NCBI GenBank assembly: GCA_964592525.1
Contig: CAZQFB010000001.1
Span: 212,413-276,412 of the forward strand
Length of the DNA: 64,000 nt
Reading direction: 5' to 3'
Source of the DNA: an uncultured Candidatus Saccharibacteria bacterium
GTDB taxonomy: Bacteria; Patescibacteriota; WWE3; CAZQFB01
This document shows positions 15,595 to 47,555 of the stretch, piece by piece (within the stretch, counting starts at the first letter, position 1; each line of letters begins with the position of its first letter). The notes beneath the pieces were generated by a model. The model was not told the DNA's origin. It did no database searches and saw nothing but the letters and a program-made list of their open reading frames with translations. Made by a program: the position numbers and the translations under genes.

Positions 15595-17079
15595 ATGCAA
15601 AAAAAGCGCACTTCTTTTGTTGTCTTTTTCATTTTTCTGTTTTCATTAAGTTTTAGGTTATGGGGTATAACCACCATGGGTGAGTATTGGGATGAGGCGC
15701 AAATTGCTGAAACTGGCAGTGAATACCTACGCAATGTTTCTCAATTAGATTTTTCTTCTCAAGCTTGGTCTGTTAATAAAGAACACCCTCCCGTGGCCAA
15801 GTATCTCTACGGTGCTTCCAAACTGGTACCAAAGTATATAACCGCGGTGGCTCGAATTGATAGCGAGTATGCGGTGGGTAAACAGTTAACCTTTGGGCGT
15901 TTGGTGAGTGCCGTGCTTGGTTCGTTGACGGTAGTCTTTTTGTTTCTGGTGGGTAAGACATTATACAACCCAAGAGTGGGTTTGGTGGGGGCTCTCTTTT
16001 TAAGTCTGCTCCCTCATGCTATCGGTCATAATCGGGTGGTGGGTTTGGAAACTCCCCTTTCTTTCTTTATTCTCCTTTCCCTATATTTATTTTTGGTGAA
16101 GAGAACACTATTAGCGAGTGCGGCTTTTGGCTTAGCTTTGGCGACTCGTTTTAACGCCATTTTAATGCTCCCCTTCTTTTTACTTGTACCCCTAGTCCAA
16201 GGAGATCCTGTCAAAAAGGCGGCAAAACAATTATTTTTCCTGGTTCTTGTTTCATTTATCTTGCTCCTTGTTACCTGGCCCTGGCTTTGGAGTAACCCTC
16301 TGGGCAATCTTATTGAGAGTCTGTCCATGTCCACCACCCACACAGACGCGGAGTACTTTTTAGGAAGACTTGGTAATTTGCCCTGGTTTTATTACTTGCT
16401 ATATACCTTAGCGACTCTTCCCTCTATTCTGCTCATTTTTTTGACTGCTTCTGCTGTGAAGTTGGTAAAAGACAGGGGAAAAGAGGATGTAATTCTTTTT
16501 AGTTACCTGCTTCTTCCTTTCGTGGCTTCGTTTTTGCCTCTCAAGCAAGATGGTTTGCGCTACATTTTTCAGGTTTTGCCCGCGCTGGCGCTCGTTTGCG
16601 CAGTGGGGTTTGATTACCTTGTTAAAGGTATTATTCGTCTAAGTCATTTGCCGAGCAAAATTTATTCCCTAAGTTTGGGTTTGGTGATGGTGTTATTACT
16701 AACGAGCTTTTTGCGGTTTAACCCTTATCAAATAGATTTTTACAATTATATGGTTGGGGGAACGAAGTATGTTTATGAGTATAGACTGTTTGAGGTTGGG
16801 TGGTGGGGGGAGGGTATCTATGAGGCTATGCAGTGGGTTAATGATAATGCCAAAGAGGGGGCTAGTATTAATATTGCCTACTCCCCCCAACATGTTGCAC
16901 CGGAACCTCGGAAGGATCTGCAAATTTTTGCTGGTGATTTTGGGCAAGATTATATTCTCTTGAACACCTATTCGCAGTGGTACAAAGAGGTTGGCTTGAG
17001 TCCTGATGATTATGAGTTGGTATATTCGGTAGAGGTGGCAGGGGCTCATTTAGCCGAGGTTTACAGAAGAAGTTATTAA
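15595..17079 (+). CDS. GT-C membrane glycosyltransferase, PMT/ArnT (GT39/GT83-like) family
   Basis: A 494 aa polytopic protein. The first extracytoplasmic loop carries WDE (the DE motif) and EHPPVAKYL (the HPPLxK-type PMT motif). Confidence 0.65.
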   Translation: MQKKRTSFVVFFIFLFSLSFRLWGITTMGEYWDEAQIAETGSEYLRNVSQLDFSSQAWSVNKEHPPVAKYLYGASKLVPKYITAVARIDSEYAVGKQLTFGRLVSAVLGSLTVVFLFLVGKTLYNPRVGLVGALFLSLLPHAIGHNRVVGLETPLSFFILLSLYLFLVKRTLLASAAFGLALATRFNAILMLPFFLLVPLVQGDPVKKAAKQLFFLVLVSFILLLVTWPWLWSNPLGNLIESLSMSTTHTDAEYFLGRLGNLPWFYYLLYTLATLPSILLIFLTASAVKLVKDRGKEDVILFSYLLLPFVASFLPLKQDGLRYIFQVLPALALVCAVGFDYLVKGIIRLSHLPSKIYSLSLGLVMVLLLTSFLRFNPYQIDFYNYMVGGTKYVYEYRLFEVGWWGEGIYEAMQWVNDNAKEGASINIAYSPQHVAPEPRKDLQIFAGDFGQDYILLNTYSQWYKEVGLSPDDYELVYSVEVAGAHLAEVYRRSY

Positions 17080-17121
17080 TAAGTAGTGTAAAGCCTGCCT
17101 GCGGCAGGCAGGTGAAAAGTT

Positions 17122-18792
17122 ATGAACTCTTTGATTAGATCTAAATCCAACCCGCGAAATATTCTTTTGCTGGTTGCTTTAATTGCTACGTTGTTTTTCT
17201 ACTACCTAAACCAGACCCAAGCAATTTGGCAAAACCCTTTCCCCAAAGGTGATGAGGTGGCTTATCTGGCGACGGCGGTAGCTATTCGTGAAGAAGGTGG
17301 GCTGGTGTCTTTAATCCCGCGGATGATAACGGGTGATTACAAGGAAGCCAACAGACACCCGTTCTATGTGGGTCTGCTCTCAATTTTTGCCCATCCGTCT
17401 TTGGATTTTTTTGCCAATGCTAAAGCTTTTAACCTGGTGCTAGGGGGAATCTATCTGCTTTTACTGTTTTGCCTGATGCGCAAACTCCTAGGTTGTTCCT
17501 TAGCTTTCTTGATGGTACTACTGTATGCGGGGAACTATTTTTTTCTCAACCAAGTAGCCAAAGTATCCACCGAACCTCTGTTATTTATTTTCGTTTTATT
17601 GAGTTGGTACTTAATTACTGAATATGGTCAGAAAACAGATAAAAAAATCGTACCTTCGGCAATGGTAGCCTCCTTGAGCTACTTGGCTAAAGTGACAGGG
17701 ATTTTTGTAATCCTTTCTTATCTGGCTACCAACTTAATTGCGGTGCTAACAAAAAAAACAGCCTTGTTCTCCAAAATTAAGCTCACTGCTCCCACACGTA
17801 AGGAAGTTGTTCTGTTTATTGCCACAGTACTCGTGGTAGCCTCCCCCCTTTTGTGGCGAAATACGCTGGTGTACAACAACCCGTTCCATAATTACAACAG
17901 TAAATTACTGTTTATCGCTAGGGGTGAGGAGCGGAGAACGGTGGAGATTTACAAAGGAGAATCACAGGGGTTAGTGGGGTTTATTAAGGAGCAATCTATT
18001 GATGGGACTGTGGGACGGCTCTTGAGAGGTATGGTCAATGAGAGTGTGGTTTTTACCCAAATGGTGTTTTTTGATTATGGGCGGATTAGAGGTTCTTTAA
18101 TTCTGTTTGGTTTGTTCTTGATGTCTATGTTAAGGGACAGGAATAGGTGGCGCGCGTTGTATTCAGTCTTCCTTTTTTCTGCCTTTTTTATCTTCTTCTC
18201 TTGGTATTACCCTATCAGCGGTCACTTTCGCTATGTTCTCCCCGTACTCTTTATTGTTTACTTCTATCTTTTTCTTCTTCTAAAAGATTTTGTAAAGTAC
18301 CTTTCTATGAAGTGGCGTTGGTTAGCAAAGTTTACCTTAGTAACACCGTTACTTCTTATGCTGCTAGGGTTCTACCTAATATATGAAGAACTTGATGAAC
18401 ACGAATATATTACCCCGGCGCATGCCCATAAAGTGACGACAGCTTATTTAGATCTTGCTTCGTGGATTGAAGACAATATTACCCCCGAAACTTTATACTT
18501 AAATGGGCCTGGTCATGAGTTTCAAGTTGAATGGCTCACGGGTACCTCTGAACAATCAATTGAAATGCCAATTGTTACTAGTCTGTCAGAACTTAATCAG
18601 TTTATTTCTGATTATGGCATAAAATATGTCATCCTCTCTCAACCAACTATTACTGGTCGCGAGCTTATTTTGAAGGATTATTTTATACTTAAAGGAGATG
18701 GGTTGCAGGAAGTATCAAAACCCCAAGGATGGGCATTAATTGCCCATGAGCACCGAAGTGACCCTCGCTATTTAATCTATGAAATTCAATAA
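17122..18792 (+). CDS. GT-C membrane glycosyltransferase, PMT/ArnT-like
   Basis: PFPKGDEVAYLA...ANRHPFYVGL gives DE and HP loop motifs. The N-terminal half is polytopic and there is a C-terminal soluble domain. Confidence 0.6.
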   Translation: MNSLIRSKSNPRNILLLVALIATLFFYYLNQTQAIWQNPFPKGDEVAYLATAVAIREEGGLVSLIPRMITGDYKEANRHPFYVGLLSIFAHPSLDFFANAKAFNLVLGGIYLLLLFCLMRKLLGCSLAFLMVLLYAGNYFFLNQVAKVSTEPLLFIFVLLSWYLITEYGQKTDKKIVPSAMVASLSYLAKVTGIFVILSYLATNLIAVLTKKTALFSKIKLTAPTRKEVVLFIATVLVVASPLLWRNTLVYNNPFHNYNSKLLFIARGEERRTVEIYKGESQGLVGFIKEQSIDGTVGRLLRGMVNESVVFTQMVFFDYGRIRGSLILFGLFLMSMLRDRNRWRALYSVFLFSAFFIFFSWYYPISGHFRYVLPVLFIVYFYLFLLLKDFVKYLSMKWRWLAKFTLVTPLLLMLLGFYLIYEELDEHEYITPAHAHKVTTAYLDLASWIEDNITPETLYLNGPGHEFQVEWLTGTSEQSIEMPIVTSLSELNQFISDYGIKYVILSQPTITGRELILKDYFILKGDGLQEVSKPQGWALIAHEHRSDPRYLIYEIQ

Positions 18793-20350
18793 TAAACCGG
18801 TCTTGCTAGTATTACTGTTAGTTGTCCTGGTACGTTTACTCCTGCTCAATGTTAATTTGGCTGAAATCGGCGATTCTTATAATCTCCTTACGGCTGGAGA
18901 GGCTCTAAAATCCTTGCAGTACCCTCTGGAGGAGAAGAGGTTACCTCTGCTGCCACTGCTTCTTTCTCTGAATCGTGTTATTGAACCGCTTTTGTTTGGT
19001 CGTTTATTGATGTTAGTGCTTAGCACTTTAAGCATAATTATCACTTTGAAGCTTTATTATCACTTATCTGCTGGTAAAAATTACGGGTGGTTTCTAGTGC
19101 TTCTATTGGCTACCCAACCACTTTGGTCTTACTGGTCTTTACGGATTATGACTGACGTGTTGTTTGCATTGCTGTTTATGCTTTTTGTCTATCTGACCAT
19201 GAGTAAAACACCTAGTCCGCGCCTAGCCATTTATCTTGGAGTAGTTACTGGGCTAGCAGCGCAAACTAGGTTTGAAGGGTTTTTGTTACTAGCTGCTTAT
19301 CTACTATTTCTGTTTATAAAAAATAAGTATCGGTATTTGGTTTACTTTTTAACGCCAGCCTTGCTGATTGTTTTGCCTTTTTTTATTCGTAACTGGCTGC
19401 ACTTTGGTAGTCTGTTTTATTCGTCTTATGCCCAAGAAGCTTCACAGTATCTTCCCGATTTAAGGTTAATAGCGATTTTTATTACTTATTTAGTTTTTTT
19501 AATGGGTCCTTTAACCACTTGGTTTGTCCGCTTGGGGGTCTCTCAAGTGGCGCGTTTGAAAGTGACCCAAATTTTGCCAACAGTGATTTATCTGTTTTTA
19601 TTTATGCCCTTAATTGGTGTTTGGACAGCAGCGGTACCGAGACTTTTCTACTCTCTAGTACCTCTTTTTGCCTTGTTAGTGGTACTCGGTTTTGAGCAAG
19701 CTTCTGGTAGAGGAAAAGAGGAGCTAAAACCAAGCGCCGTCTTATTTGGATTGTTCTTGGTGTTAGCTTGGTTTTTAAGAGTGGATTTTATCACCGGCAG
19801 TTTTTCTGCCATGGTCTTGGTAAGCTTTTTAAGTTTGTTGGGTTTAATTTCCCTTGGGCTGACTGCTAATTACCGACCTTGGTTAATGACGGTGATGCTT
19901 CTTTCTAATTTAATAGTTGCCACCTCGGTTATTTCCCAAGCTAAAGACAGAGCGAGTACGACATGGCAAGCAGTGCAATACGCTTCTAAATTGCCTGGTT
20001 TGATTGGTTATGCTGACGAAACTGGTGTGAGTTCATGGTATTTGCGCAAGACTGGTCGCTACTGGCGTGATGACCCTGGGTTTACAGAAGCGCTTAATTG
20101 GCTGCGGGATAATCAAATTAAATATGTGCTGCTTACTAACGAACACTACGAGGAAGGGGCGCAATTTTTGGTTGTTTATGACAGGCATGATGCCCATATG
20201 TTTAAATTGCTAACCAGATTTGAGCGGGTTGGTGATCAAGATCTCTTCAATCAATTGTTTGCAAAATTGGGTTGGAAAGACGCCAAACAATTAATACCAA
20301 AATATGCTGAAGTCTATGAAGTTATTTCGTACCGATCACCAAGCGATTAA
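18779..20350 (+). CDS. polytopic membrane protein, GT-C-like (putative glycosyltransferase)
   Basis: A 523 aa protein with about 12 TM segments and a GT-C-like architecture. The motifs are weaker. The start overlaps the upstream gene. Confidence 0.45.
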   Translation: MKFNNKPVLLVLLLVVLVRLLLLNVNLAEIGDSYNLLTAGEALKSLQYPLEEKRLPLLPLLLSLNRVIEPLLFGRLLMLVLSTLSIIITLKLYYHLSAGKNYGWFLVLLLATQPLWSYWSLRIMTDVLFALLFMLFVYLTMSKTPSPRLAIYLGVVTGLAAQTRFEGFLLLAAYLLFLFIKNKYRYLVYFLTPALLIVLPFFIRNWLHFGSLFYSSYAQEASQYLPDLRLIAIFITYLVFLMGPLTTWFVRLGVSQVARLKVTQILPTVIYLFLFMPLIGVWTAAVPRLFYSLVPLFALLVVLGFEQASGRGKEELKPSAVLFGLFLVLAWFLRVDFITGSFSAMVLVSFLSLLGLISLGLTANYRPWLMTVMLLSNLIVATSVISQAKDRASTTWQAVQYASKLPGLIGYADETGVSSWYLRKTGRYWRDDPGFTEALNWLRDNQIKYVLLTNEHYEEGAQFLVVYDRHDAHMFKLLTRFERVGDQDLFNQLFAKLGWKDAKQLIPKYAEVYEVISYRSPSD

Positions 20351-21731
20351 ACTTTTTTGGTTGGTCTTTTTTGTTTATACCCTTAGTTGGTTGTGTTTTT
20401 ATTTTAGCGGTATCAATCGGACGTTGCTTCCCAGTGAAGATGCTTTACCAGCCACTTATCTGCCAGTATCTTTGGTTAGCGAAGGTAATTTGGATTTGAA
20501 CGAATACTATGATTATTTAGTTAGTCACTATCCCAACCCAGACGATAAAGACGCCTTGCCCTTTTATGTGCGGTATATTAATGACAGGTATGTTTCCGGG
20601 TTTCCCGTGGTTAATGTACTAATGGTGGCCCCGATATATGCCTTTTTTATATGGGGTGCTTCACTCTTTTCAGGGCTCATGCCTTCTCTAGCCGACCTAA
20701 CCTCAAGTGTTGTTTTTATTCTCGCTTTAGGAAAAATAGCTTCGGCGATTATAGCGGCTTTTTCGGTGTTGGTTGTTTATTTGATAGGTAAGGAAATGTC
20801 AACTAGCAAGGTTGCGCTTGTGGTGAGTTTGATTTATGGATTAGCCACTTCTACTTTTAGTGTTTCTAGTCAGGGGATGTGGCAACATGGTTCAGTTGAG
20901 TTGTTTTTAAGTTTAGCTCTTCTTTTTCTGGTTAGAGGTGGCTCAAAAGCATACCTTTCTGCTCTCTTTTTATCTCTGGCTACTTTAACCAGACCGACTA
21001 TGGGTTTGGTGGCAATAATTTTTGCGGTGTATTTTATCTGGCAACACCAAGAGCAACTGCACAGATTTATCTTGCTCGCTCTGCTCCCTCTTGTGCCTTG
21101 GTTTATCTATAACCGCATTTATTTCGGTGCTTTTTTGTCTCATGCCTATAATACCGGGGTAGGCACTCAAGGTAACTGGACCGGTAGCTTTCCAGAAGGG
21201 TTCTTAGGTTTGTTGCTCTCGCCAAGCAAGGGCTTATTTATCTATTCACCCGTTCTGCTATTTGTATGGTGGGGGATAGGGTTGTTATTTAAACAAAGAA
21301 TTCAACCCAAACGCTTACTTAACTTCTATTATTTTGCCCTTTTTGCAGTGGTAGCTTATATCTTACTGATGGGAAGGTGGTATCACTGGTTTGGTGGTTG
21401 GTCTTTTAGTTACCGCATGATTGTGGATATTTTACCTTTAATAGTGCTGTTTTTAGTTCCGGTGATGGCGCACCAGCTCCTCTTTTGGTGGCGGTTTCTC
21501 TTTAGCCTATTATTTATTTATTCTTTTGGTATTCAGCTTCTTGGAGTCGCTTTTTTTGATGGCGAGTGGCATGCGCGCTATGATGATGGGCCTTATGATA
21601 CGAGGTGGTTATGGTCAATTGAGAATTCAGAGCTGTTGTACTACTCCAGAAAAATTAAATGCAAGCTAGGGACTAGTAGTGTGTCGGAATATCTTGAGTG
21701 TCAGGGTTTTAGAAAAGAGAGTGCAAACTAA
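20304..21731 (+). CDS. polytopic membrane protein, GT-C-like (putative glycosyltransferase)
   Basis: A 475 aa protein with an N-terminal loop (LPSEDALPATYLP...NEYYDYL) followed by multiple TM segments. The likely true start is an internal Met near 20316. Confidence 0.4.
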   Translation: MLKSMKLFRTDHQAIKLFWLVFFVYTLSWLCFYFSGINRTLLPSEDALPATYLPVSLVSEGNLDLNEYYDYLVSHYPNPDDKDALPFYVRYINDRYVSGFPVVNVLMVAPIYAFFIWGASLFSGLMPSLADLTSSVVFILALGKIASAIIAAFSVLVVYLIGKEMSTSKVALVVSLIYGLATSTFSVSSQGMWQHGSVELFLSLALLFLVRGGSKAYLSALFLSLATLTRPTMGLVAIIFAVYFIWQHQEQLHRFILLALLPLVPWFIYNRIYFGAFLSHAYNTGVGTQGNWTGSFPEGFLGLLLSPSKGLFIYSPVLLFVWWGIGLLFKQRIQPKRLLNFYYFALFAVVAYILLMGRWYHWFGGWSFSYRMIVDILPLIVLFLVPVMAHQLLFWWRFLFSLLFIYSFGIQLLGVAFFDGEWHARYDDGPYDTRWLWSIENSELLYYSRKIKCKLGTSSVSEYLECQGFRKESAN

Positions 21732-21755: not shown

Positions 21756-22460
21756 ATGTTTTTATCAGTAGTAATTCCTGTTTATAACGAAAGAAATACG
21801 ATTAGAGAGATTGTGGCTAAAGTGTATAACCTCAATATCAATAAAGAGATTATTTTGGTTGATGACGGCAGTACTGATGGTACTATCCAGGAACTTAAAA
21901 ATATTGAGCGTGAGTTTGACGAGGTGAGGGTGATCTTCCACAGCCGAAATCAGGGCAAAGGAGCGGCTTTGCGAACTGGTTTTGGCCAGGTGAAAGGTGA
22001 TTATGTTATTGTCCAAGATGCCGATTTGGAATATGATCCCGCAGATTTCCACAAACTTTTGGAAGTGGTAGAAAGTGGTGAGGCTGAAGTGGTTTATGGT
22101 TCCCGCTTTGTAGGCAAAACTAAGCGAGATATTTACCGCAAAGGCAACATGCATTGGCTGCATTTGATAGGTAATAAATTCCTGACCAAAGCGACCAACC
22201 TTTTATATGGAGTAAAGCTTACGGATATGGAAACATGTTACAAGTTAATACCCGCCAATTTGATTCGTCAGATTAAGATCAGGTCCGATCGGTTTAACTT
22301 TGAACCGGAAATTACCGCTAAAATTTTAAAAAGAGGCTACAAAATAAAAGAGGTGCCTATCCACTATTCTGGTAGGGAAATGAGTGAAGGTAAAAATATC
22401 TCTTGGCGAGATGGTCCTGCGGCGCTTTGGGCTCTGATCAAGTTTAGGTTTATGGAATAG
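21756..22460 (+). CDS. GT2 polyprenol-phosphate glycosyltransferase (DPM synthase-like, soluble form)
   Basis: LSVVIPVYNE...IILVDDGSTDGT...NQGKGAALRTG...VIVQDADLEYDP. Confidence 0.75.
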   Translation: MFLSVVIPVYNERNTIREIVAKVYNLNINKEIILVDDGSTDGTIQELKNIEREFDEVRVIFHSRNQGKGAALRTGFGQVKGDYVIVQDADLEYDPADFHKLLEVVESGEAEVVYGSRFVGKTKRDIYRKGNMHWLHLIGNKFLTKATNLLYGVKLTDMETCYKLIPANLIRQIKIRSDRFNFEPEITAKILKRGYKIKEVPIHYSGREMSEGKNISWRDGPAALWALIKFRFME

Positions 22461-22462: not shown

Positions 22463-24028
22463 ATGTCCGTTAATTCGCGTATTGCTGTAGATTCTATAAA
22501 AACAGCTATAGCCACTTTTGGTATGCAGGCTGTGGCTTTTGCGGTTTCTATTCTGGTAGCTCAATTTTACGGAGCTACTAAGGTTATGGATGCCTACTTT
22601 TTTGCTTTAGCAGTTCCGGCTCTTTTTACGGCGGCCTTGTTTGGTGCTCTGAAAGCTGTTTTTATTCCGGTTTACACTGATTATGTTAGTAAACATCCCA
22701 AACAGAAGCAAGCGGTTTTGGGGGCAGCTTATAGTAGTGTAACACTGCTGTCGGTGACGGCCGCGCTGCTGCTTTATTATCTCGCTCCCTTGCTCATGCC
22801 CTTAGTGGCTTCTGGACTAGAAGGGGAAGAAGCCAAGTTGTTGGTGGTCACACTCGCTCGGGAATTAATGCCTTTGGTAGTGCTCTCCTCAATCATTGGC
22901 TTGATGAATTCTATTTACCAAGCCGAGCAGCGATTTGTCATGCCCATTCTGACTCCTTTTGCTCGTAGTTTGGTGTTATTTATTTTTGTTGTTTTTTTCC
23001 GAGATCAATTGGGCATACACGCTTTAACCTATGGTTCGGTTTTGGGTGAGCTGTTAAACCTGTTGCTCATGTTTGGGGCGCTGAAAGTTCGCGGTATTTA
23101 CTTTGGCTTTAGATCCATGTTTCACCCAGTTATTAAAAGAATGGCTAGGTTGTCCATAGCTCCATTGGTAGGTAACCTGGTTCTCGAGTTTAATCCTTTG
23201 GTGGATAAGATTATGATCGCTTCTACGGCGGTTGGTTCGGTAACTGCTTTAAACATAGCTTATAAATGGAACGATATCCCTCTCATGCTTCTAAGCTCGG
23301 GTGGATTTATGTCGGTTATTCTTTCTCATTGGTCCAAACTCAAAGCTGAAGAAGATATGGATAAAGTGGTCCAAAGTTTGCATCAGTCTCTAACCATGGT
23401 GGTCTTTATCTTAATGCCTTTTCTAACTGCCTTTTTTGTTTTACGTTCAGAGATTATCACCTTTTTTTACCTTAGAAAGGAATTTAGTGTGGAAGCGGCA
23501 GATAATGTGGCTTTATTATGGGGTGTTTTGCTTTGGGGTGTTCTGCCCGTTCTCACCGGTCGTATTTTGGTGCGGGTGTATCATGTGATGCAAGATACCT
23601 CCACTCCATTTTGGATAGGTATCTCCCGTACCATTCTCAATATAGTCTTAAATTTCATTTTCAAGGCTATGTTTGGGTTGGTGGGGATAGCTATTTCAAG
23701 TATTGTGACCCAATACATCCTCACCACTATTAATTTTTACCTATTAAAGAAAAAACTTTTTCAGCTTGAGTTGAGATTTTTAACTCTTTCCTGGCTTAAG
23801 ATATTTTTATGTGCTCTGCCCATGGCTTTGGTGATGAGGTTTAGCTATCATCCTTTGCTCAATCTTGCTCAAATTATCATTAATCAAGAACTGCTTTATC
23901 CTGTGCTGGCCATAGGTGCCACTTCTTTTCTTGGGTTACTGATCTATTTATTAGTCTCAAGAGTAATTAAACTGGCTGAATTTGAGCTGCTCTTTTCCAA
24001 TATGAGTAAATTGCTGCGCAAATCTTAA
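22463..24028 (+). CDS. MurJ/MviN-family (MOP superfamily) lipid-linked glycan flippase
   Basis: The N-terminus SRIAVDSIKTAIATFGMQAVAFAVSILVAQFYGATKVMDAYFFALAVP matches the MurJ signature region. The protein is 521 aa with about 14 TM segments. Confidence 0.65.
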   Translation: MSVNSRIAVDSIKTAIATFGMQAVAFAVSILVAQFYGATKVMDAYFFALAVPALFTAALFGALKAVFIPVYTDYVSKHPKQKQAVLGAAYSSVTLLSVTAALLLYYLAPLLMPLVASGLEGEEAKLLVVTLARELMPLVVLSSIIGLMNSIYQAEQRFVMPILTPFARSLVLFIFVVFFRDQLGIHALTYGSVLGELLNLLLMFGALKVRGIYFGFRSMFHPVIKRMARLSIAPLVGNLVLEFNPLVDKIMIASTAVGSVTALNIAYKWNDIPLMLLSSGGFMSVILSHWSKLKAEEDMDKVVQSLHQSLTMVVFILMPFLTAFFVLRSEIITFFYLRKEFSVEAADNVALLWGVLLWGVLPVLTGRILVRVYHVMQDTSTPFWIGISRTILNIVLNFIFKAMFGLVGIAISSIVTQYILTTINFYLLKKKLFQLELRFLTLSWLKIFLCALPMALVMRFSYHPLLNLAQIIINQELLYPVLAIGATSFLGLLIYLLVSRVIKLAEFELLFSNMSKLLRKS

Positions 24029-24041
24029 TCTGGAGACCCCG

Positions 24042-24100
24042 CTCGGGGCACTCCTGCTGGGAATGCCCCGAGGCGAGGTTTAAGGAGTTCCCTCCTTTTG
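24042..24100. terminator. bidirectional terminator hairpins between convergent genes
   Basis: ctcggggca (24042-24050) pairs with tgccccgag (24064-24072) as a 9 bp stem. A second small hairpin ggag-ttcc-ctcc follows, then ttttg. The element lies between the MurJ (+) stop and the stop of the 109 aa (-) ORF. Confidence 0.45.
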
Positions 24101-24122
24101 CTGGAAAACCCAACCAACTAGA

Positions 24123-27903: not shown

Positions 27904-27926
27904 AAAGTGGAAAGCGAAAAATAAAT

Positions 27927-28913: not shown

Positions 28914-28918
28914 TTTGT

Positions 28919-40026: not shown

Positions 40027-41241
40027 ATGCTACAATATCTGTGTATGACTACGCACAACATAGTATGCCTTTCGACCCAGCTTTGGGATGATCCCATGTG
40101 GACCAACAAACAGCACGTCATGAGCCGTTTGGCCAAAAGGGGTCATAAAATTATGTATGTTGATCCTCTCATCAGGATTAGGATGCTAGCCAGTAACATG
40201 GTCTTCAAAAGGAGATATTCTCCTAAAAGGCTTTTCACCTTTAAAAAAGAAGTAGAGAATAATCTCACAGTTTTATCTCCCGTGAAGTTTCTCTTTTCAA
40301 AAGAGAGGGAAAGAAGATTTAATTTGAAATTGATTAATAGAACAATCAGTCAGTCTGCAATCAATAAACCCATTCTCTGGGTTTATGATCCCGATTTTGC
40401 TGATTATGTGGAGCAGATACCCCATCAACTACTTATATATGATTGTGTGGATGATTACTCAAACATGCCCCAGGAACGTTACCCCGATAACAAAAAAGCA
40501 GAGATCATTGAAAAGGAGAAGAAGCTTATTAAAAGAGCAGATTTGGTTTTTGCCACTTCGCCTTTTCTTTATAAATTAAGAAAAGAGCAAAACCCAAATA
40601 CTTACTACACTCCCAATGTGGCGGATTTTGAGCATAACAGCCAAGCTCTTAAAGAAACGTTAGCCGTACCTGAAGAAATCAAAGATTTAGCCAAACCAAT
40701 CATAGGTTTTCAAGGTAATCTTTCTGCCTATAAATTTGATTTTGATTTGCTTGAAGCCGTTATCGCTAGTCACCCAGAATGGTCCTTTGTGTTTATTGGG
40801 CCGGTGGAAACCAGTAAAACCCTGACCGATACCTCTCGTAACACTCAAGTAGCTAAGCTGGAAAAACATGAAAACACACACTTTTTAGGTGTCCAACCTT
40901 ATGAACGATTACCCGCCTTTTACAAAGCTTTTGATGTCGCTATCATGCCCAATAAACAAAATGATTATAACCGCAGTTCATTTCCGCTTAAATTTTTTGA
41001 GTTTCTAGGAGCTGGTTTACCGGTGGTAATGACAAAATTACCTGCTTTGGCAGAATTTTATAATACTTCTGGAGTCTATGTTTCCGTTAGTGTGCAAGAT
41101 TTTATTAGGAACTTAGAGGAAGCTGTAACTAAAGGTCGCGCTTTTAGTCAAGAGGATAGATTGGTGCTCGCTAAACAGTACTCCTGGGAAAGTAAGATAG
41201 ATACTATGATAGCTTTGATTGAGGAAAGACTTAATAAATGA
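40027..41241 (+). CDS. GT-B fold glycosyltransferase (GT4-like)
   Basis: The C-terminal FFEFLGAGLPVVMTKLPALAEFY has a GT-B architecture. Confidence 0.5.
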   Translation: MLQYLCMTTHNIVCLSTQLWDDPMWTNKQHVMSRLAKRGHKIMYVDPLIRIRMLASNMVFKRRYSPKRLFTFKKEVENNLTVLSPVKFLFSKERERRFNLKLINRTISQSAINKPILWVYDPDFADYVEQIPHQLLIYDCVDDYSNMPQERYPDNKKAEIIEKEKKLIKRADLVFATSPFLYKLRKEQNPNTYYTPNVADFEHNSQALKETLAVPEEIKDLAKPIIGFQGNLSAYKFDFDLLEAVIASHPEWSFVFIGPVETSKTLTDTSRNTQVAKLEKHENTHFLGVQPYERLPAFYKAFDVAIMPNKQNDYNRSSFPLKFFEFLGAGLPVVMTKLPALAEFYNTSGVYVSVSVQDFIRNLEEAVTKGRAFSQEDRLVLAKQYSWESKIDTMIALIEERLNK

Positions 41242-42470
41242 TTTCGGATAAAGTTCAAAAAATACTGGTCATACTGCTTCTTGTTATTATGGGCGTGTAC
41301 TTGTGTTGGATGATTTTGGCTGGCTTTTTAAACCAGGGGGTGTCGGACTTTGCCACTTATTATCATGCTACAACTTTCGCACTGGCAGAGGATTGGAGGA
41401 ATCCTTACAGCAATCTTGCTCCTTTTCCTCCTTACTATTACCCACCACCGTCAATTCTGCTCTTTGCACCACTTACTTGGATGGATCGGACCATAGCTAA
41501 AACCGTTTTCTCCTCATTATCTGTGGTGGTCATGTTTTTATCGGTGTGGTTGATCATTAAGTTGAGAGGCGAGTCTCTAAGTGATCTACAAAAAACTATC
41601 TGTTACGCGATACCTGTCTTTTTCTACCCCTTCTGGTTTACTGTGGACGATGGTCAAGTAAACGCCTATCTCCTGTTATTGATCACCCTAACCTACTATT
41701 TTTATGAAAAAAATCGGGGGGTACTATCCGGGATGTTCCTTTCCCTTGCTATTCTTTTCAAAATAACCCCAGCGCTGATGGCTGTTTATTTATTGTTTAA
41801 GAAAAAGTACAAGATCATTTTGGTGGGTGGCTTGGTGTTTATTGTGCTGACTGTTGCCTCCGAGATGAGGTTGAAACCAGGGATAAATTGGATGTATTGG
41901 CGGTACATTGTTAATGATGTTTCGGCGCAAGGCGGTCCTGGTTATCGAGATCAGTCTCTTAATTCTTTTATTATGGAAACTGGGATAGTTGAATATCTCT
42001 GGGAAAATAAATTAAGGTATTTGTCTTTGCCCTCAAAAGTTGATGAACACGTGGTGACCAACCTGGTTAATTATGCCATTGTGGGGGTACTTTCACTATT
42101 TATATTTTTCAAATCTATTAAAGAGAAGGTGACCGAAACTTCAACTATTATTTATGAGTATTCCTTGCTGACTATTATTGCTGTAGTTGGGTCTGGGTTA
42201 ACCTGGTATCACCAATATACCATGCTCCTATTTCCATTTTTAATAGCGGTGATTGCAGTGATGAGAATGATCCCGTCCAAGAGACGCGTGATTTTAACTT
42301 TTATTCTTGCCGTGGCTTATGTCTTAATGGCAGTTAGTTTAGAAAGGCAAATCAATGTTGCTGATAGGTTGGTTGATTTTCAAAGGGGTGTGATGTTTTA
42401 TGGGGCTGTTTTAACGGCTTTAGTTCTGGGGTACTTTAGATATAGCCCTAGTTTTAAGGAGAGAAAATGA
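41238..42470 (+). CDS. DUF2029 / GT87-like membrane glycosyltransferase
   Basis: The N-terminus VSDFATYYHATTFALAEDWRNPY...YPPPSILLFAPL matches the DUF2029 DF-x2-YY...NPY...YPP pattern. The protein is polytopic. Confidence 0.5.
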   Translation: MISDKVQKILVILLLVIMGVYLCWMILAGFLNQGVSDFATYYHATTFALAEDWRNPYSNLAPFPPYYYPPPSILLFAPLTWMDRTIAKTVFSSLSVVVMFLSVWLIIKLRGESLSDLQKTICYAIPVFFYPFWFTVDDGQVNAYLLLLITLTYYFYEKNRGVLSGMFLSLAILFKITPALMAVYLLFKKKYKIILVGGLVFIVLTVASEMRLKPGINWMYWRYIVNDVSAQGGPGYRDQSLNSFIMETGIVEYLWENKLRYLSLPSKVDEHVVTNLVNYAIVGVLSLFIFFKSIKEKVTETSTIIYEYSLLTIIAVVGSGLTWYHQYTMLLFPFLIAVIAVMRMIPSKRRVILTFILAVAYVLMAVSLERQINVADRLVDFQRGVMFYGAVLTALVLGYFRYSPSFKERK

Positions 42471-43615
42471 AAATTGCTTATGTCCTTAATTCCGGTAACG
42501 TAGGAGGTGCCGAGAAACATGTTTTGGATTTAGTTGAGGGATTTAGTCATGATAATGAGGTAGTGGTGGTATGTCCTGAAGGGGAGATGGTTAATAAATA
42601 TAAACTGGCTGGGGCGGATGTTATCATTGACAAACCCTCTTTTGACATTGATATCTTCTATATTTTCAGACTGAAGAGGTTACTTGTATCCAGGTCAATA
42701 GATATTGCTCATCTACATCAGCTCAAGACAGTAATAAATGGGTTGATCTCGGCTAGTCTAGCTCAAACTAAGGTTAAGATTGCACATATCCACTCTCCCC
42801 TTTCTAAGTGGCAAATCCCTTTATATAAAAAGATATTGGATCTATTGATGAACTTCCTGGTGGTAAATCTGCTGGCGGATGTTGTGATAGCCCTTACCGA
42901 GGAAACAAAGCAGGAAAGGATGCGGGGTGAACATATTCGCGAAGATTTGATCAGAGTCATTCCCAACGGAGTGACAATTGAAAAGATAAAGCCTCAAGCG
43001 CACGATATGGAAGAGGCAGGAGTGTGGTTGAGAAAGAAGTACCAGCTAAATAAAGAGTATTTAGTTGGTACCTTAAGTAGATTAACGGAAGAGAAAGGGA
43101 CGGATGTATTCATAAAGGCTATTTCAAGAATGCCTGCTTTGGATGAGAATCTGTATCGAAATTGTCATTTTTTTATTGCTGGGGAGGGTCATTTACGGGG
43201 TGAGTTGGAGAAGTTGGTCAAATCAACAAACCTTGAAAGTATGGTGACTTTTCTTGGCTTTCTTTCAGAGGATGACCATGCAAAGTATTTTAAGTCCTTG
43301 AATCTTTTTGTTTTTCCTACTCTCCATGAGGGTTTTGGGCTTGTTTTAGCCGAAGCGATGGCTTATGGGGTGGCTACCCTTTCCTCGGATCTCCCTGTCC
43401 TTAAGGAAATTACCAACGCTGGTCGATTTGGCAAACACTTTGCGCGGGGCAGTGAGGATGATTTGGCAGAAAAGATGATTTCACAGCTTAAGGGTGAAGA
43501 AGGCGATAGCGCTACGATCCTAGCGGCTCAACAATGGATCAAGCAAAACTACTCCAAAGAACTTTTTATAAGTAGGTATAGGAAGTTATATCAGGAGGCA
43601 TTGGGTAATAAATGA
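42467..43615 (+). CDS. GT4 family glycosyltransferase
   Basis: FVFPTLHEGFGLVLAEAMAYGVATLSSDLP. Confidence 0.75.
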   Translation: MKIAYVLNSGNVGGAEKHVLDLVEGFSHDNEVVVVCPEGEMVNKYKLAGADVIIDKPSFDIDIFYIFRLKRLLVSRSIDIAHLHQLKTVINGLISASLAQTKVKIAHIHSPLSKWQIPLYKKILDLLMNFLVVNLLADVVIALTEETKQERMRGEHIREDLIRVIPNGVTIEKIKPQAHDMEEAGVWLRKKYQLNKEYLVGTLSRLTEEKGTDVFIKAISRMPALDENLYRNCHFFIAGEGHLRGELEKLVKSTNLESMVTFLGFLSEDDHAKYFKSLNLFVFPTLHEGFGLVLAEAMAYGVATLSSDLPVLKEITNAGRFGKHFARGSEDDLAEKMISQLKGEEGDSATILAAQQWIKQNYSKELFISRYRKLYQEALGNK

Positions 43616-44754
43616 AGGTAGTTATTCCACTTAGAGTGGATGCTTATGATAAGCCAGGTGGTGATGTAGTTCACGCGGAAAAGATCATGGCTTCTTTAAC
43701 GAAACTAGGTGTTGAGGTGGCCATGACTACTGACTTAAAGCCAGATTTATCTGGGGTAGATCTGGTCCATCTTTTTAACATGGATTGGGTTAGAGATCCC
43801 TTAATGCAAGCTAGACATGCCTATCGGTACCAGGTGCCAATTGTGCTCACCCCAATCCACCACTCCTTTAGGGAGATAGATGGCTTTGAAAGACAGGAGA
43901 GATATGGTTTGAGAAGGCTGACTAATATTGTCCTAAGGTCTTATGAACAACGTGAAACAGCCAAAAACATTTACCGTGCCTTTGTTGAGTTGGATCGGCG
44001 CAAATGGTGGGGTACTCTTGGTCTACTTAAGCAGGGTCTAACAGCACAATATCAGGAGCTGTTATCTCTAGCTACGGTTGTCATGCCTAATACCTATTTG
44101 GAGGAGGCAGAGCTGGAGCGGGAATTTGGGGTGGAGATGGAGACAGTAGTAGTACCGGCAGGAGTTGATCCAAACTTTTTAAACGCTACGGCTGATTGGT
44201 TAAACCACAATTATCCCGAGGTACTTGCTCGCTTGGGTTCTGATTTTGTGGCGATGGTGGGACGGATTGAACCGCGTAAAAATCAATTAAGAGTGATTGA
44301 AGCCTTAGCGGTGGCAAAGATACCCTTGTTACTAGTAGGCGATTTCAACCCCCATCATTTTGAATATAGTTGGCGAGTTCAGCAGGCGTTGTTAAAAAAT
44401 AAGCAAACAGTACATTTGGAGAGTATTCCTCATCAGCATATCGGTTCGGTTTATGCCTCCTGCAAAGTCCATCTGTTAGCTAGTTGGTTTGAAACGACTG
44501 GTTTAGTTAATTTAGAAGCGGCTTTGGCTGGGGCAACGGTGGTGTCCACAAACAAAGGTTTTGGTAAAGAGTATCTGGCACAGCAAGCAATTTTAGTTGA
44601 TCCTGCTAGGTCTGAATCTATTTTGTGTGGGGTTGAAAAAGGGTTACGGGAGGGGCGTAATGACAAATTGCAGGCGCATATTTTGCAAAATTACACTTGG
44701 GATATTGTGGGCGAACAAACTTTAGCGGTGTACCAAAAAGTATTAAAGAAGTAG
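43612..44754 (+). CDS. GT-B fold glycosyltransferase (GT4-like)
   Basis: ETTGLVNLEAALAGATVVSTNKGFGKEYL. Confidence 0.6.
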   Translation: MKVVIPLRVDAYDKPGGDVVHAEKIMASLTKLGVEVAMTTDLKPDLSGVDLVHLFNMDWVRDPLMQARHAYRYQVPIVLTPIHHSFREIDGFERQERYGLRRLTNIVLRSYEQRETAKNIYRAFVELDRRKWWGTLGLLKQGLTAQYQELLSLATVVMPNTYLEEAELEREFGVEMETVVVPAGVDPNFLNATADWLNHNYPEVLARLGSDFVAMVGRIEPRKNQLRVIEALAVAKIPLLLVGDFNPHHFEYSWRVQQALLKNKQTVHLESIPHQHIGSVYASCKVHLLASWFETTGLVNLEAALAGATVVSTNKGFGKEYLAQQAILVDPARSESILCGVEKGLREGRNDKLQAHILQNYTWDIVGEQTLAVYQKVLKK

Positions 44755-44765
44755 TATAAAGAATA

Positions 44766-47555
44766 ATGGAACTAGCCTTTTTAACCTTACTTTTTTGTTG
44801 CCTAGCACTATACATTACCTCTCGTGATCTCAAGTGGGGGTTAGTGTTATTGGTGCTAACTCTCCCCTTAAATAATCGCTTGATGTTTGATTTATTTATT
44901 TCTCAACAACTATTACCGGTTAGGTTAGTTTTGGTAGCTGTGCTGATAGTGCTGCTTAAGAACACATGGCTTGCATACCACCCATTCTCTGTGAAAGAAA
45001 GGTGGTCTTCTCTACTTAAAATGGGGCGACAAGACCCATTTCTATTTTTACTGATAAGTTTGTTGGGGGTGCGGGTTTTGTCTTTAATCAATGTGATTAA
45101 CTTTAAATTTTCTTTAACCTTTATGGTTTTTTATCTGGCGATGATTGGCATGTATTTGGTGATGAAGTATGTTTATGCTCGTGAGGGGCGCGAATTTTTC
45201 TACCAACTTTTCCAACTTCATGCTGGGGTGGTGGTAGCTACGAGTTTGTTTAGTGTGGTGCAATTTTTCTTTTTTAAAGGTATTGGTAGAGTGTTGCCGG
45301 GAGTCTGGCCTTCCACCACCGAACCGACTAGGTTTGGGTCAACTTTTTGGGATATTAATCACTATGCTCCCTATGTAGGTAGTGTGATTCCTTATTTCTT
45401 GATAAGGCTGATTGCTGCTAAGACTAATAAGGAACGAGTATTATTTGGTTTTTGTTTTGGGCTGACTAATATCAGCTTGCTGATGACGTTGTCTCGAAGT
45501 GGTTGGTTAGGTTATGCTTTTGGGCTCGGTGTCTTTGGTTTGTTGCTGATAATCAGAAAGATGTGGCGTGGTTTTTCTTGGTATTTAGCTGCCATGATAT
45601 TGATTATGCTAGCCGCTTTAGCAGGGGATATGTACTTCAACCATCCGATCTCAAGAAGGATAAAATCCTTAGGTACTAATGTTTACAACGAATCTTTTAA
45701 TGCGCACCAAATTCTGAATAAAGGTCATTTTGAGTTGTTCTCTAGACATCCGGTGATTGGTTCTGGGTATGGTAACTTTAGTGACCAGTTTAGAACTACC
45801 CCACATGCGGCTAAATATTTTGAGATTGATCCGGTTGCAGAAGTGCGTTTGCCTTCTCATAGTGTCTGGTTAGAAATAATGTCTGAAACAGGGATGCTGG
45901 GATTAACCACATTTTTGGTCTTAGTGGCTTATGTTTTTAGACGGTTATTTTTAGCGATGAACACTAGTGAAGAGAAGTGGCGCTATCTAGGTGTAGCGCT
46001 GTTTGCCTCAATTGCTGGCATGTTATTTTCTTCTCTTTTTTACCACTATAACCTGGAGTATTTCTGGCTGATAATTTTCCTAGCGGTCTTTGTGGCGCGC
46101 AGTGTGTTGCCCACCGAACAGTATCAACCTCAAGATTACTTGGTCACCTTTTTACTGGTTGGTTTAGCCACTGCCATGATTTTTCCACAGCTGGGTAAGA
46201 ACGCTCTTATTGACTGGGATGAATCCATTTATGCACAAGTCGCCAAAAATATTGCTCGCTTTCGTGATCCGATCACCCTGCGTTGGCATTTAGAGAAATA
46301 TTGGTTTGAAAAGCCTCCGCTCTATTTTTGGTTCACAGCAGCGCTTTACTTGGTTCATGAGGTGTCTGAATTTTCAGCTCGCTTTTGGTCCGCACTGTCT
46401 GGTGTTTTGGGGGTAGTGCTCGTCTATTTTTTTGGTCGTGACTTAGCAGGTAGAGCTGTTGGGTTGGCTTCGGCACTGACCTTGCTCTCTACTGTTCATT
46501 GGTTGTTCCAGTCAAGAAATGGCACTTTAGATGTGATGGCAGCAACTTGTATAGTGGCCACACTTTGGTTGTTTTACCGAGCACGGACGCGGTTGAGGGA
46601 CTGGTGGTTGGTGGGAGTTGGTTTGGGTCTGACCTTGATGGTTAAAGGAGCCGTGGCAGCGGTTCCTTTATTGATTATGGTTATATTTGGGGGATATGAA
46701 TATTTTCTGCAGCAGAAAAAAAATTACTACCCCTGCCGACAGCTTTTTGTAAGAATACTGGTGCCTTTCAGTGTGCTTGTCTTACCCTGGCATATCGCTG
46801 TTATCTGGCTTCATGGTCGGCAATTTATTGATTCGTACTTTTTTTATCATGTTCTGCAACGATCAACCACTGGTATTGAGCAACATGGTCATTCTTTTTT
46901 CTGGTATTTGATTGTCATTAAAGTGTGGGCTAGACATAATTTTGTACTGCTGCTTGGCTCTTTAGCCTTACTGTTTACAAGTTGGCTGAAAAAAAGGCGC
47001 CGTGGTCTAAAAGCAAATACGCCAGAAGTGTTTTTGATTTTATATTTACTAGTAGCGTGGCTGATATTTTCCCTTTCGGCTTCAAAGATTCAGTGGTACA
47101 TTATGCCCTTGTATCCAGCGATGTCTTTAATTGTGGGTTATAGTTTGGTAATACTGTTTAGGTGGTTACCTTTGAAAAGGTTTATACCCATATTATTAAT
47201 GGTCTTGACTTTAAGTGTGCCTTTTTTTAAAGATCGTTATCAGTCACTATGGAATCTGGAAGATGCTTGGCGAGGCGTTGCCGAAGTTGTGCCTCATCTT
47301 AAGTATGAAGCGCGAAAAGTCTCCTCGCCGCGACTGTTAATAATTGATATGTCTCCAGGTCCGGCAATGTTTTACAGCCCCCATCCAACGGAAACAGGTA
47401 ACTTTTCAACGTTGGTTAAAGCGGCGGAAAGTGAGAACTCTTTCTTTGCCGTTGCTAGAGTAGGGCAAGCCGAAGATCTGATAAAGCTTTATCCGGAAAG
47501 GAAGGTTAAAATATATAAACAGTCTGAAGATTTTGCGCTGCTGGGTAGATGGTAA
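44766..47555 (+). CDS. fusion protein: N-terminal O-antigen ligase/polymerase-like (Wzy_C) domain + C-terminal PMT/ArnT-like GT-C domain
   Basis: The 929 aa protein has a first half containing LMTLSRSGWLGYAFGLGVFGLLL (Wzy_C/O-antigen ligase motif) and a long periplasmic loop. The second half contains IDWDESIYAQVAKNI...FEKPPLYFWF (DE motif plus KPPL, the ArnT/PMT signature). Confidence 0.55.
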   Translation: MELAFLTLLFCCLALYITSRDLKWGLVLLVLTLPLNNRLMFDLFISQQLLPVRLVLVAVLIVLLKNTWLAYHPFSVKERWSSLLKMGRQDPFLFLLISLLGVRVLSLINVINFKFSLTFMVFYLAMIGMYLVMKYVYAREGREFFYQLFQLHAGVVVATSLFSVVQFFFFKGIGRVLPGVWPSTTEPTRFGSTFWDINHYAPYVGSVIPYFLIRLIAAKTNKERVLFGFCFGLTNISLLMTLSRSGWLGYAFGLGVFGLLLIIRKMWRGFSWYLAAMILIMLAALAGDMYFNHPISRRIKSLGTNVYNESFNAHQILNKGHFELFSRHPVIGSGYGNFSDQFRTTPHAAKYFEIDPVAEVRLPSHSVWLEIMSETGMLGLTTFLVLVAYVFRRLFLAMNTSEEKWRYLGVALFASIAGMLFSSLFYHYNLEYFWLIIFLAVFVARSVLPTEQYQPQDYLVTFLLVGLATAMIFPQLGKNALIDWDESIYAQVAKNIARFRDPITLRWHLEKYWFEKPPLYFWFTAALYLVHEVSEFSARFWSALSGVLGVVLVYFFGRDLAGRAVGLASALTLLSTVHWLFQSRNGTLDVMAATCIVATLWLFYRARTRLRDWWLVGVGLGLTLMVKGAVAAVPLLIMVIFGGYEYFLQQKKNYYPCRQLFVRILVPFSVLVLPWHIAVIWLHGRQFIDSYFFYHVLQRSTTGIEQHGHSFFWYLIVIKVWARHNFVLLLGSLALLFTSWLKKRRRGLKANTPEVFLILYLLVAWLIFSLSASKIQWYIMPLYPAMSLIVGYSLVILFRWLPLKRFIPILLMVLTLSVPFFKDRYQSLWNLEDAWRGVAEVVPHLKYEARKVSSPRLLIIDMSPGPAMFYSPHPTETGNFSTLVKAAESENSFFAVARVGQAEDLIKLYPERKVKIYKQSEDFALLGRW

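Follow-up and report, generated by a model that had tools for sequence, protein, structure and literature searches.

What does a dense run of membrane glycosyltransferase genes do in a member of the Patescibacteria, and is it as unusual as it looks? The question is raised by a stretch of 64,000 nucleotides, called the window below, in which a first-pass annotation, made from the sequence alone, had described an exceptionally dense array of GT-C membrane glycosyltransferases between positions 15595 and 47555 and had read it as a surface glycosylation system. Because the named homologs of the window proteins belong to candidate division WWE3 and to the "Patescibacteria group", we assign the window to a probable ultrasmall, WWE3-like member of the Patescibacteria. 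The finding is real and its reading at the level of the chemistry is correct; the array is typical of its lineage in kind and enlarged in degree.

The glycan cluster spans approximately positions 2091-53394, which is wider than the range first annotated, and about 35 glycan genes are packed into these ~51 kb. Fourteen of them are of the GT-C type, namely twelve PMT-type genes, one GT87 gene and one gene for a DUF2079 protein, which is a putative GT-C. They are given below, and genes are referred to throughout by their first coordinate.

15595-17079, plus strand: GT-C of the PMT/PMT_2 type, with the loop-1 motif WDE and the motif HPPVAK.
17122-18792, plus strand: GT-C of a divergent family with the loop-1 motif GDE, recognized by PMT_2 and hhalign.
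18779-20350, plus strand: GT-C of a divergent family, recognized by hhalign and a family alignment.
20304-21731, plus strand: GT-C with ALG12 as its closest fold, recognized by profile and model.
24535-26130, minus strand: GT-C of family B, PMT/PMT_2, with an ortholog in the related locus L024 that is 49% identical.
26242-27903, plus strand: GT-C of the PMT-like HPDE family.
28919-30493, plus strand: GT-C of family B, directly downstream of the ArnC-like GT2 27927.
30541-32175, minus strand: GT-C, PMT_2.
33355-35013, 34946-36598 and 36595-38187, plus strand: three overlapping tandem GT-C of the B and HPDE families.
41238-42470, plus strand: GT-C of family GT87 (PimE-type), recognized by Pfam GT87.
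44766-47555, plus strand: fusion of an N-terminal Wzy_C/WaaL-like half and a C-terminal ArnT-like GT-C half (Pfam Wzy_C 54 bits, PMT_2 70 bits).
2091-3737, minus strand: DUF2079 polytopic protein, putative GT-C, recognized by Pfam DUF2079.

All twelve polytopic open reading frames (ORFs) listed in the first-pass annotation are present; according to the ORF map and a simple hydropathy scan, they encode 475-929 amino acids with many predicted transmembrane (TM) segments each. Ten of the twelve score above the Pfam gathering cut-off for PMT/PMT_2, which is 26.1 bits for PMT_2: 15595, 17122 (26.4 bits), 24535, 26242, 28919, 30541, 33355, 34946, 36595 and 44766. Gene 18779 falls narrowly under it (25.6 bits), and the Pfam search gave no match for 20304. 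The two divergent families are nevertheless linked to the 34946 family by hhalign, the profile of 18779 and 11 homologs from related loci at 98.5%, and that of 17122, from an alignment of 41 sequences in which the loop-1 Asp is invariant and the TK lysine is present, at 99.4% over 413 columns; homologs of 17122 number 478 cluster representatives at E <= 0.001. Profile and fold evidence places 20304 in GT-C. The nearest fold is that of ALG12, an enzyme that extends lipid-linked oligosaccharide, and the model has no sizeable soluble C-terminal domain. The GT87 protein scores 106 bits against a Pfam cut-off of 25, and 48 against a cut-off of 413 for the NCBIfam mannosyltransferase PRK13375. The DUF2079 protein reaches 124 bits in Pfam, and its hhalign probabilities to three GT-C families are 66%, 57% and 6.5%; DUF2079 presumably belongs to the Pfam GT-C clan.

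The motifs that had been taken as diagnostic of these enzymes held up in part. A loop-1 acidic residue is seen in all of the proteins, as DE in eight, DD in one, ED in one and a single D in 18779, 28919, 41238 and 2091, and the family alignments A1, A2, A3, A4, A6 and B show its Asp as invariant or almost invariant. A TK/R motif is conserved inside each aligned GT-C family. The HP(P)xxK-like motif does occur but varies, reading HPPVAK in 15595, FEKPPL in 44766 and (H/K)PG in 24535, 28919 and 36595. We distinguish two old subfamilies with several members: the PMT-like HPDE family (26242, 33355 and 34946), with an invariant HPDE loop-1 motif, and family B (24535, 28919 and 36595), with 15595 and 30541 as looser relatives. 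The remaining subfamilies are the ArnT-like domain of 44766, the singletons 17122, 18779 and 20304, GT87 and DUF2079. The best match of the HPDE family in the PDB is Pmt1 (E 3e-19, over ~150 residues of the TM core), with Pmt4 also close, and about 120-140 residues follow the last predicted TM segment in most GT-C members. None of the scanned GT-C-type proteins reaches an NCBIfam equivalog cut-off, and 34946, the sole HPDE member scanned, matched no family.

Might many of these paralogs be non-catalytic relics, or transporters misread as glycosyltransferases? The weak or absent Pfam matches of several of them would fit, as would the single loop-1 Asp, in place of a DE pair, of 18779 and 28919. 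Against this, dozens of homologs show the loop-1 Asp to be invariant, or almost so, within each family, relatives keep orthologs at 30-50% identity, implying purifying selection, and the fold matches of the modelled proteins are exclusively GT-C. The hidden Markov model (HMM) searches returned GT-C families and no transporter families, the models of 20304 and 44766 show the GT-C fold, and a transporter or permease identity is ruled out by the Pfam, hhalign and fold searches; neither of the two outcomes that the first-pass annotation had named as fatal to its reading came about. We regard this explanation as largely refuted and highly improbable. The PMT-type proteins and the GT87 protein are supported, from sequence and fold, as GT-C enzymes that would use polyprenyl-phosphate sugars.

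The largest of these proteins, the 929-residue product of 44766, is a fusion of two domains. Its model has a predicted local distance difference test score (pLDDT) of 81 and a predicted TM-score (pTM) of 0.84. Residues ~1-450 match Pfam Wzy_C and, in a Foldseek search with the model, WaaL (7tpg; TM-score 0.64, E 4.8e-5); this half gave no sequence match to any solved structure. Residues ~460-929 match ArnT, both by profile (5ezm, E 1e-40) and by Foldseek (5f15, E 3.6e-12, TM-score 0.67). When aligned with ArnT 5ezm, D485/E486 correspond to D55/E56, E515/K516 to E84/K85, D589 to D158, K627 to K203 and R699 to R270, and several of the ArnT residues so matched are active-site, metal-binding, acceptor-binding or carrier-phosphate-binding (PMC7801869). 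These five positions are invariant in 16 full-length homologs (29-53% identity), all of which have the fusion architecture and some of which are named as Patescibacteria or WWE3. In the N-terminal half, R244, H314 and H365 are invariant. The comparison of catalytic and phosphate-binding residues with ArnT that the first-pass annotation had called for thus came out as a full match in the fusion. Against the ArnT equivalog of NCBIfam, 44766 scores 71.7 bits, with a cut-off of 567. Judged from these alignments, the WaaL-like/ArnT-like fusion is conserved in Patescibacteria, and our literature search found no paper describing a WaaL-ArnT fusion or GT-C arrays in bacteria of the Candidate Phyla Radiation (CPR).

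To what extent is the density itself unusual? A metagenome scan seeded with the 34946 family returned 80 loci, and density was counted on 30 loci of ~21 kb, with the GT-C ORFs of the relatives identified by means of the window proteins and six family HMMs; the loci had been selected by the presence of a single GT-C family and end at +/-10 kb. Five GT-C genes were present in 23 of the 30 loci, four in 5 and three in 2. The peak densities of the window are 6 GT-C genes in 12.6 kb, 10 in 21.4 kb and 13 in 32 kb, about twice the lineage norm. One relative, L024, has 7 GT-C ORFs in 12.6 kb; it is collinear with positions 24535-38187 of the window at 33-69% identity and retains the pair 27927-28919, a GT2 followed by a GT-C. 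Two others, L072 and L091, have 5 GT-C genes in ~21 kb and are collinear with positions 20304-53394, with identities of 30-56%; the fusion, the PglC-type transferase and the DUF4012 protein are part of this collinear stretch. The backbone order kept in both is GT2, GT-C, GT-C, MurJ, GT4, GT2, then, further along, GT-C, GT-C, GT4 genes, fusion, GT2, GT4, PglC and DUF4012. Both lack the HIT-family gene 38270, the minus-strand genes 30541 and 38874 and the GT87 gene 41238, which appear to be window-specific additions; 30541 is absent from L024 too.

The core that is usual among the relatives consists of an 18779-like GT-C, a 21756-like GT2, a DUF2079 protein, a Wzx-type flippase, a UPF0104 protein, three tandem GT-C, a second Wzx, a double GT2, a ferredoxin and a B12 radical SAM protein that is 61-62% identical to the product of 25-1740. 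The 21756-like GT2 adjoins the 18779-like GT-C in 21 related loci, and the three-gene GT-C run (B, HPDE, B) is kept in nearly all relatives. Since the relatives hold the same kit in smaller form, we are dealing with an enlarged, lineage-typical cluster and with no new kind of system. With collinear relatives and about twice the lineage norm, the dense array is a conserved, selected feature of a sub-clade and no unique anomaly. The exceptional density claimed at first therefore stands as an enlargement and falls as a unique outlier, and the statement that one to a few GT-C enzymes are usual in genomes with this chemistry fails for this lineage, in which there are 3-5 per ~21-kb locus and, once, 7 in 12.6 kb. 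Two variants were seen in another related locus, L056: three tandem 21756-like GT2 genes ahead of a weakly 20304-like ORF (positions 1-1919), and an 831-residue GT-C of the 33355 type that carries an additional extension at its C terminus (positions 10001-12496).

The array is also old. The GT-C paralogs are at most 21-33% identical, five of them have no BLASTP match to any other, and the longest DNA repeat in the window is ~40 nt; old paralogs and the lack of long repeated DNA argue against recent duplication, and recent tandem duplication was rejected. A mobile island is unlikely, given the even GC content across the cluster (0.38-0.45) and its synteny in distant relatives. A search around the minus-strand GT-C genes for invertible or phase-variable cassettes found none. 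A 31-nt inverted match (24855/37813) lies within the coding sequences of 24535, on the minus strand, and 36595, on the plus strand; since it falls in two family-B paralogs, it is read as a shared coding motif.

The GT-C genes are accompanied by four GT2 genes of the ArnC/GtrB/DPM type, two ordinary GT2 genes, nine GT4 genes, a PglC-type transferase, a MurJ-family flippase, an ArnE/F-like protein, a UPF0104 flippase-like protein, a flavoenzyme like UDP-galactopyranose mutase (UGM), a HIT protein and a DUF4012 protein. These genes, and the radical SAM gene next to the cluster, are the following.

25-1740, minus strand: B12-binding radical SAM protein, HpnJ-like (Pfam Radical_SAM and B12-binding; NCBIfam HpnJ 143 bits, below the cut-off).
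3784-4533, plus strand: GT2 of the AglJ/dolichyl-phosphate-hexose-synthase type, candidate polyprenyl-phosphate-sugar synthase.
4523-5971, plus strand: FAD enzyme, UGM-like (Pfam Amino_oxidase/GLF; PDB 4dsg, E 1e-11, full length).
5976-6338, plus strand: ArnF/ArnE-like protein with four TM segments, candidate polyprenyl-phosphate-sugar flippase (NCBIfam ArnF 57 vs 99 bits; Pfam EamA).
6463-7500, minus strand: ordinary GT2, MftF/EpsD-like, with C-terminal TM helices.
7575-8441, plus strand: GT2 of the AglJ/PgfS/ArnC type with C-terminal TM helices, candidate donor synthase.
8438-9421, plus strand: UPF0104/LPG_synthase_TM flippase-like protein (Pfam 92 bits; NCBIfam TIGR00374 above cut-off).
12875-14038 and 14045-15265, plus strand: two GT4.
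21756-22460, plus strand: short GT2 of the AglJ/DPM type, candidate donor synthase.
22463-24028, plus strand: MurJ-family (MOP) flippase (Pfam MurJ 170 bits; NCBIfam MurJ 190 vs 235).
27927-28913, plus strand: full-length ArnC/GtrB-type GT2 polyprenyl-phosphate glycosyltransferase, recognized by sequence and structure-database matches.
32157-33368, plus strand: GT4.
38270-38797, plus strand: HIT-family protein.
38874-39998, minus strand, and 40027-41241, plus strand: two GT4.
42467-43615 and 43612-44754, plus strand: two GT4.
47589-48467, plus strand: ordinary GT2, rhamnosyltransferase/MftF-like.
48679-49821 and 49812-50897, plus strand: two GT4.
50894-51523, plus strand: PglC-type polyprenyl-phosphate glycosylphosphotransferase of 209 residues (Pfam Bac_transf 185 bits).
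51520-53394, plus strand: DUF4012 protein with one N-terminal TM segment, at the cluster end in relatives too.

This inventory agrees with the glycosylation-system reading of the first-pass annotation, since it contains GT-C families, donor synthases, flippase candidates, a Wzy_C domain and a transferase of the PglC type, and it corrects several of its counts. Five donor-type GT2 and ten GT4 had been reported; we count six GT2, four of the synthase type and two ordinary, with two of the six inside 15595-47555, and nine GT4, five of them inside. The MurJ/MOP flippase and the GT87 protein lie in that range as described, whereas the PglC-type, UPF0104, four-TM and DUF2079 proteins exist but lie outside it.

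Several of these proteins deserve comment. The GT2 27927 aligns end to end with ArnC (PDB 9bhc, E 2.7e-58) and GtrB (5ekp, E 1e-39) and scores 220 bits against NCBIfam ArnC, with a cut-off of 529. The MurJ-family gene is syntenic in L072 and L091. Only the C-terminal domain of NCBIfam EPS_sugtrans/WbaP is matched by the PglC-type protein. Members of DUF4012 are enriched in CPR bacteria and tied to clusters for capsular polysaccharides and exopolysaccharides (Meheust et al. 2019, PMC6744442). No protein of the neighbourhood is more conserved than the radical SAM protein, which shares 61-62% identity with its counterparts beside the cluster in the WWE3-like loci L017 and L021. HpnJ is a hopanoid-associated enzyme acting on a lipid-linked sugar, and the protein 25-1740 may modify a sugar or a lipid-linked intermediate. 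The match of the flavoenzyme, 4dsg, is a eukaryote-type UGM. This gene belongs to a compact module at 2091-6338, in which the DUF2079 gene on the minus strand, an AglJ/DPM-type GT2, the UGM-like flavoenzyme and the ArnF/E-like protein follow each other; the combination hints at a furanose sugar delivered via a polyprenyl-phosphate carrier.

What, then, would such a set of genes make? With rather more confidence than doubt, we read the region ~2091-53394 as a chromosomal envelope-glycan supercluster of WWE3-like Patescibacteria working in two layers; the analysis shows the families and folds, the conserved catalytic and phosphate-binding residues and the synteny and conservation among relatives, and from family membership we infer the donors, the order of the steps, the acceptor and the roles of the flippases. 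In the cytoplasm, the small PglC-type phosphoglycosyltransferase would prime polyprenyl phosphate, the nine GT4 and two ordinary GT2 enzymes would lengthen the lipid-linked oligosaccharide, and the MurJ-family MOP flippase would export it. For the outer-face layer, the four ArnC/GtrB/DPM-type GT2 enzymes would load single sugars onto polyprenyl phosphate, and these donors would be flipped, with the ArnE/F-like and UPF0104 proteins as candidates. The exported glycan would then receive individual sugars, in different linkages, from the fourteen GT-C proteins, each of an old and distinct subfamily. The WaaL-like half of 44766 may polymerise the lipid-diphosphate-linked unit or ligate it to the final acceptor, and the ArnT-like half may add a lipid-phosphate-linked sugar within the same complex. 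The likeliest acceptor would be a branched cell-surface polymer or oligosaccharide. For at least some of the enzymes, a glycan acceptor is favoured by the recurring adjacency of synthase and GT-C genes, by the run of overlapping same-strand genes and by the ALG12-like 20304, with its lack of a sizeable soluble C-terminal domain.

Several observations weigh against this two-layer reading. By sequence, the nearest relatives of the HPDE family are protein O-mannosyltransferases (Pmt1, E 3e-19), as would suit protein acceptors equally; the window yielded neither an LCP ligase nor a Wzz/PCP chain-length regulator; the MurJ homolog might instead serve as the housekeeping flippase of lipid II; and the DUF2079 protein is not confirmed as a GT-C (hhalign 6.5-66% probability). 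Moreover, the cluster is broken at 9422-12755 by three genes without an evident glycan role, which, together with three minus-strand genes, suggest that several pathways may be present:

9422-10372: soluble ORF of 316 residues, with no Pfam or NCBIfam family.
10647-11372, minus strand: membrane-anchored C39-like cysteine peptidase.
11409-12755: YkuD L,D-transpeptidase of 448 residues.

The first of these points leads to protein O-glycosylation, in which most of the GT-C enzymes would move polyprenyl-phosphate sugars directly to Ser/Thr of surface proteins such as pilins, S-layer proteins or sortase substrates, acting like actinobacterial Pmt or the streptococcal PgfM/GtrC type, and in which the Wzy_C domain would be an O-oligosaccharyltransferase of the PglL/WsaB type. 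Wzy_C domains do include O-oligosaccharyltransferases, Pmt1 and Pmt4 are the nearest PDB matches of the 34946 family, and the ~120-140 residues after the last TM segment suffice for an extracytoplasmic domain. In addition, glycoproteins or a glycosylated S-layer have been proposed for WWE3 (Kantor et al., PMC3812714). On the other hand, Pfam scans of the GT-C proteins found no MIR domain, a search of the window for Ser/Thr-rich candidate acceptor proteins found none, and a lipid-linked glycan of some size is suggested by the nine GT4 enzymes, the flippase and the PglC-type transferase; 20304, moreover, resembles glycan-extending enzymes of the ALG type. We hold this explanation to be unlikely.

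The broken stretch and the strand changes bear on another explanation, that several independent glycosylation systems are simply co-located, each with its own target: the DUF2079/GT2/UGM-like/ArnEF-like module, a Wzx/Wzy-type module and GtrB-GtrC-like pairs. The order and combination of modules differ among the relatives and the synthase/GT-C pairs recur as separate units, as would be expected. Nevertheless, the modules share one neighbourhood across many distant relatives, this explanation is, as chemistry, compatible with the supercluster that we favour, and same-strand neighbours often overlap, by a few to several dozen bases in the ORF map, which suggests long co-transcribed runs. We consider co-located systems possible, if somewhat unlikely.

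The ArnC-, ArnE/F- and ArnT-like proteins, all present together, could also mean that membrane lipids or teichoic-acid-like polymers are modified for charge or resistance, that is, by ArnT/ArnC/ArnEF-like or CsbB/YfhO-like decoration with single sugars of a polymer made elsewhere. The scores of all three are far under the NCBIfam equivalog cut-offs, however, the window has no ArnA/B/D genes for the synthesis of 4-amino-4-deoxy-L-arabinose (Ara4N), lipid A genes are absent from WWE3 and its related genomes (PMC3812714), and 14 GT-C and 9 GT4 genes would be left unexplained. This explanation is improbable, and the Arn pathway proper is excluded by the absence of Ara4N genes from the window and of lipid A from the lineage (PMC3812714).

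Going beyond the two-layer supercluster that we favour, we tentatively put forward a bolder proposal, which we ourselves regard as doubtful. The clade may build its coat largely on the outer face, with at least a dozen GT-C enzymes and several polyprenyl-phosphate sugars, in an assembly line that can be likened to the mycobacterial synthesis of arabinogalactan and lipoarabinomannan (LAM) or to N-glycan extension in the lumen of the endoplasmic reticulum. The fusion would couple en-bloc ligation or polymerisation with single-sugar addition, and the gain and loss of GT-C genes would vary the complex glycan between lineages, which would serve these ultrasmall episymbionts in host attachment or phage evasion.

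As to its setting, the cluster is flanked by chromosomal genes: recO, an aminoacyl-tRNA synthetase gene and an mraZ-mraW-ftsL-PBP-mur cluster. A scan of the window for tRNAs and Rfam families found none, and promoter and terminator counts were below shuffle expectation; the sole strong promoter-like site (TTGACA-17-TACAAT, 15350-15378) lies upstream of 15595. The largest non-coding stretch within the array is a 506-bp gap (24029-24534) between the convergent MurJ-family gene and 24535, without a convincing ORF or an Rfam match. Beyond the cluster, inverted repeats of 28 nt, 93% complementary (55312-55339 and 55814-55841), surround a gene for a P-loop kinase-like protein of 160 residues (55327-55809, minus strand), which itself contains a second, perfect inverted pair of 21 nt (55390/55618). 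Nowhere in the window is the GC content lower than in the patch that holds this element (0.347), and a gene for a tyrosine recombinase (55885-56733) has the element immediately upstream of it; it may be a small inserted or invertible cassette. Finally, the Mur ligase encoded at 61996-63237 has only 413 residues and its Mur_ligase_M domain starts at residue 35, so that it appears to lack the usual N-terminal domain.

The envelope of the Patescibacteria (CPR) is almost uncharacterised. Abundant glycosyltransferases have been noted in WWE3, for which polysaccharides, glycoproteins or a glycosylated S-layer were suggested (Kantor et al. 2013, PMC3812714), a 2024 perspective on the biology of Patescibacteria leaves glycans unmentioned, and our literature search turned up none in which GT-C, GT39 or GT83 enzymes are connected with CPR bacteria. 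About 35 glycan genes in ~51 kb are a very large investment for a lineage of small genomes (PMC3812714). They point to a complex surface glycan or glycoprotein coat that could matter for host attachment and phage resistance, and the fusion and the recurring synthase/GT-C pairs offer concrete, clonable targets for heterologous expression. As the enzyme families are known and their arrangement is typical of the lineage, these results sharpen the known picture and overturn none.

How does the cluster compare with systems already described? From ArnT (GT83), the C-terminal half of 44766 keeps D55/E56, E84/K85, D158, K203 and R270, yet it is far below the equivalog score, is fused to a WaaL-like domain and occurs in a lineage without lipid A. 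The N-terminal half is WaaL/Wzy_C-like and its gene adjoins GT4 genes and the PglC-type transferase gene, as in Wzy-dependent clusters, the difference being its fusion to a GT-C_A enzyme. The HPDE family has its DE-containing loop-1 motif and, among the protein O-mannosyltransferases (GT39; yeast Pmt1/2/4, actinobacterial Pmt), its best PDB match, Pmt1, but only ~150 residues of the TM core are matched and a MIR domain is missing. The Wzx/Wzy-dependent pathway is represented by the phosphoglycosyltransferase (185 bits), the MurJ-family flippase and the Wzy_C domain, but not by a Wzz/PCP protein or an LCP ligase in the window.

Two other likenesses go further. The Gtr, CsbB-GtcA-YfhO and streptococcal Pgf systems consist of a GT2 polyprenyl-phosphate-sugar synthase, a small flippase and a GT-C; in the window, the gene of the full-length GtrB/ArnC homolog 27927 is followed directly by a GT-C gene, a small four-TM flippase candidate is at hand and, among the relatives, synthase/GT-C pairs recur. 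Here, however, there are 14 GT-C to four synthases, instead of one or two, no GtrA-family flippase or YfhO match was found, the flippase candidate being ArnE/F-like, and the unit is embedded in a Wzx/Wzy-type cluster. In the mycobacterial and corynebacterial synthesis of arabinogalactan and LAM (EmbA/B/C, AftA-D, PimE and MptA-C, with decaprenyl-phosphate sugars), many distinct GT-C enzymes, partly encoded in tandem (embCAB) and including a GT87 member of the PimE type, make one outer-face linkage each on a glycan that is begun in the cytoplasm on a polyprenyl carrier and then extended outside. The window differs in having no Arabinose_trans/Emb-type Pfam matches and no DprE1/UbiA-type donor pathway, in its PMT_2/ArnT-like enzymes and in a far higher density (14 in ~51 kb) in what is likely a very small genome; Emb and Aft are distant fold matches only, so that the likeness is one of working mode and not of family membership. 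The cluster would be closest in function to the mycobacterial Emb/Aft/Mpt line and to three-component decoration of the Gtr/Pgf/YfhO kind.

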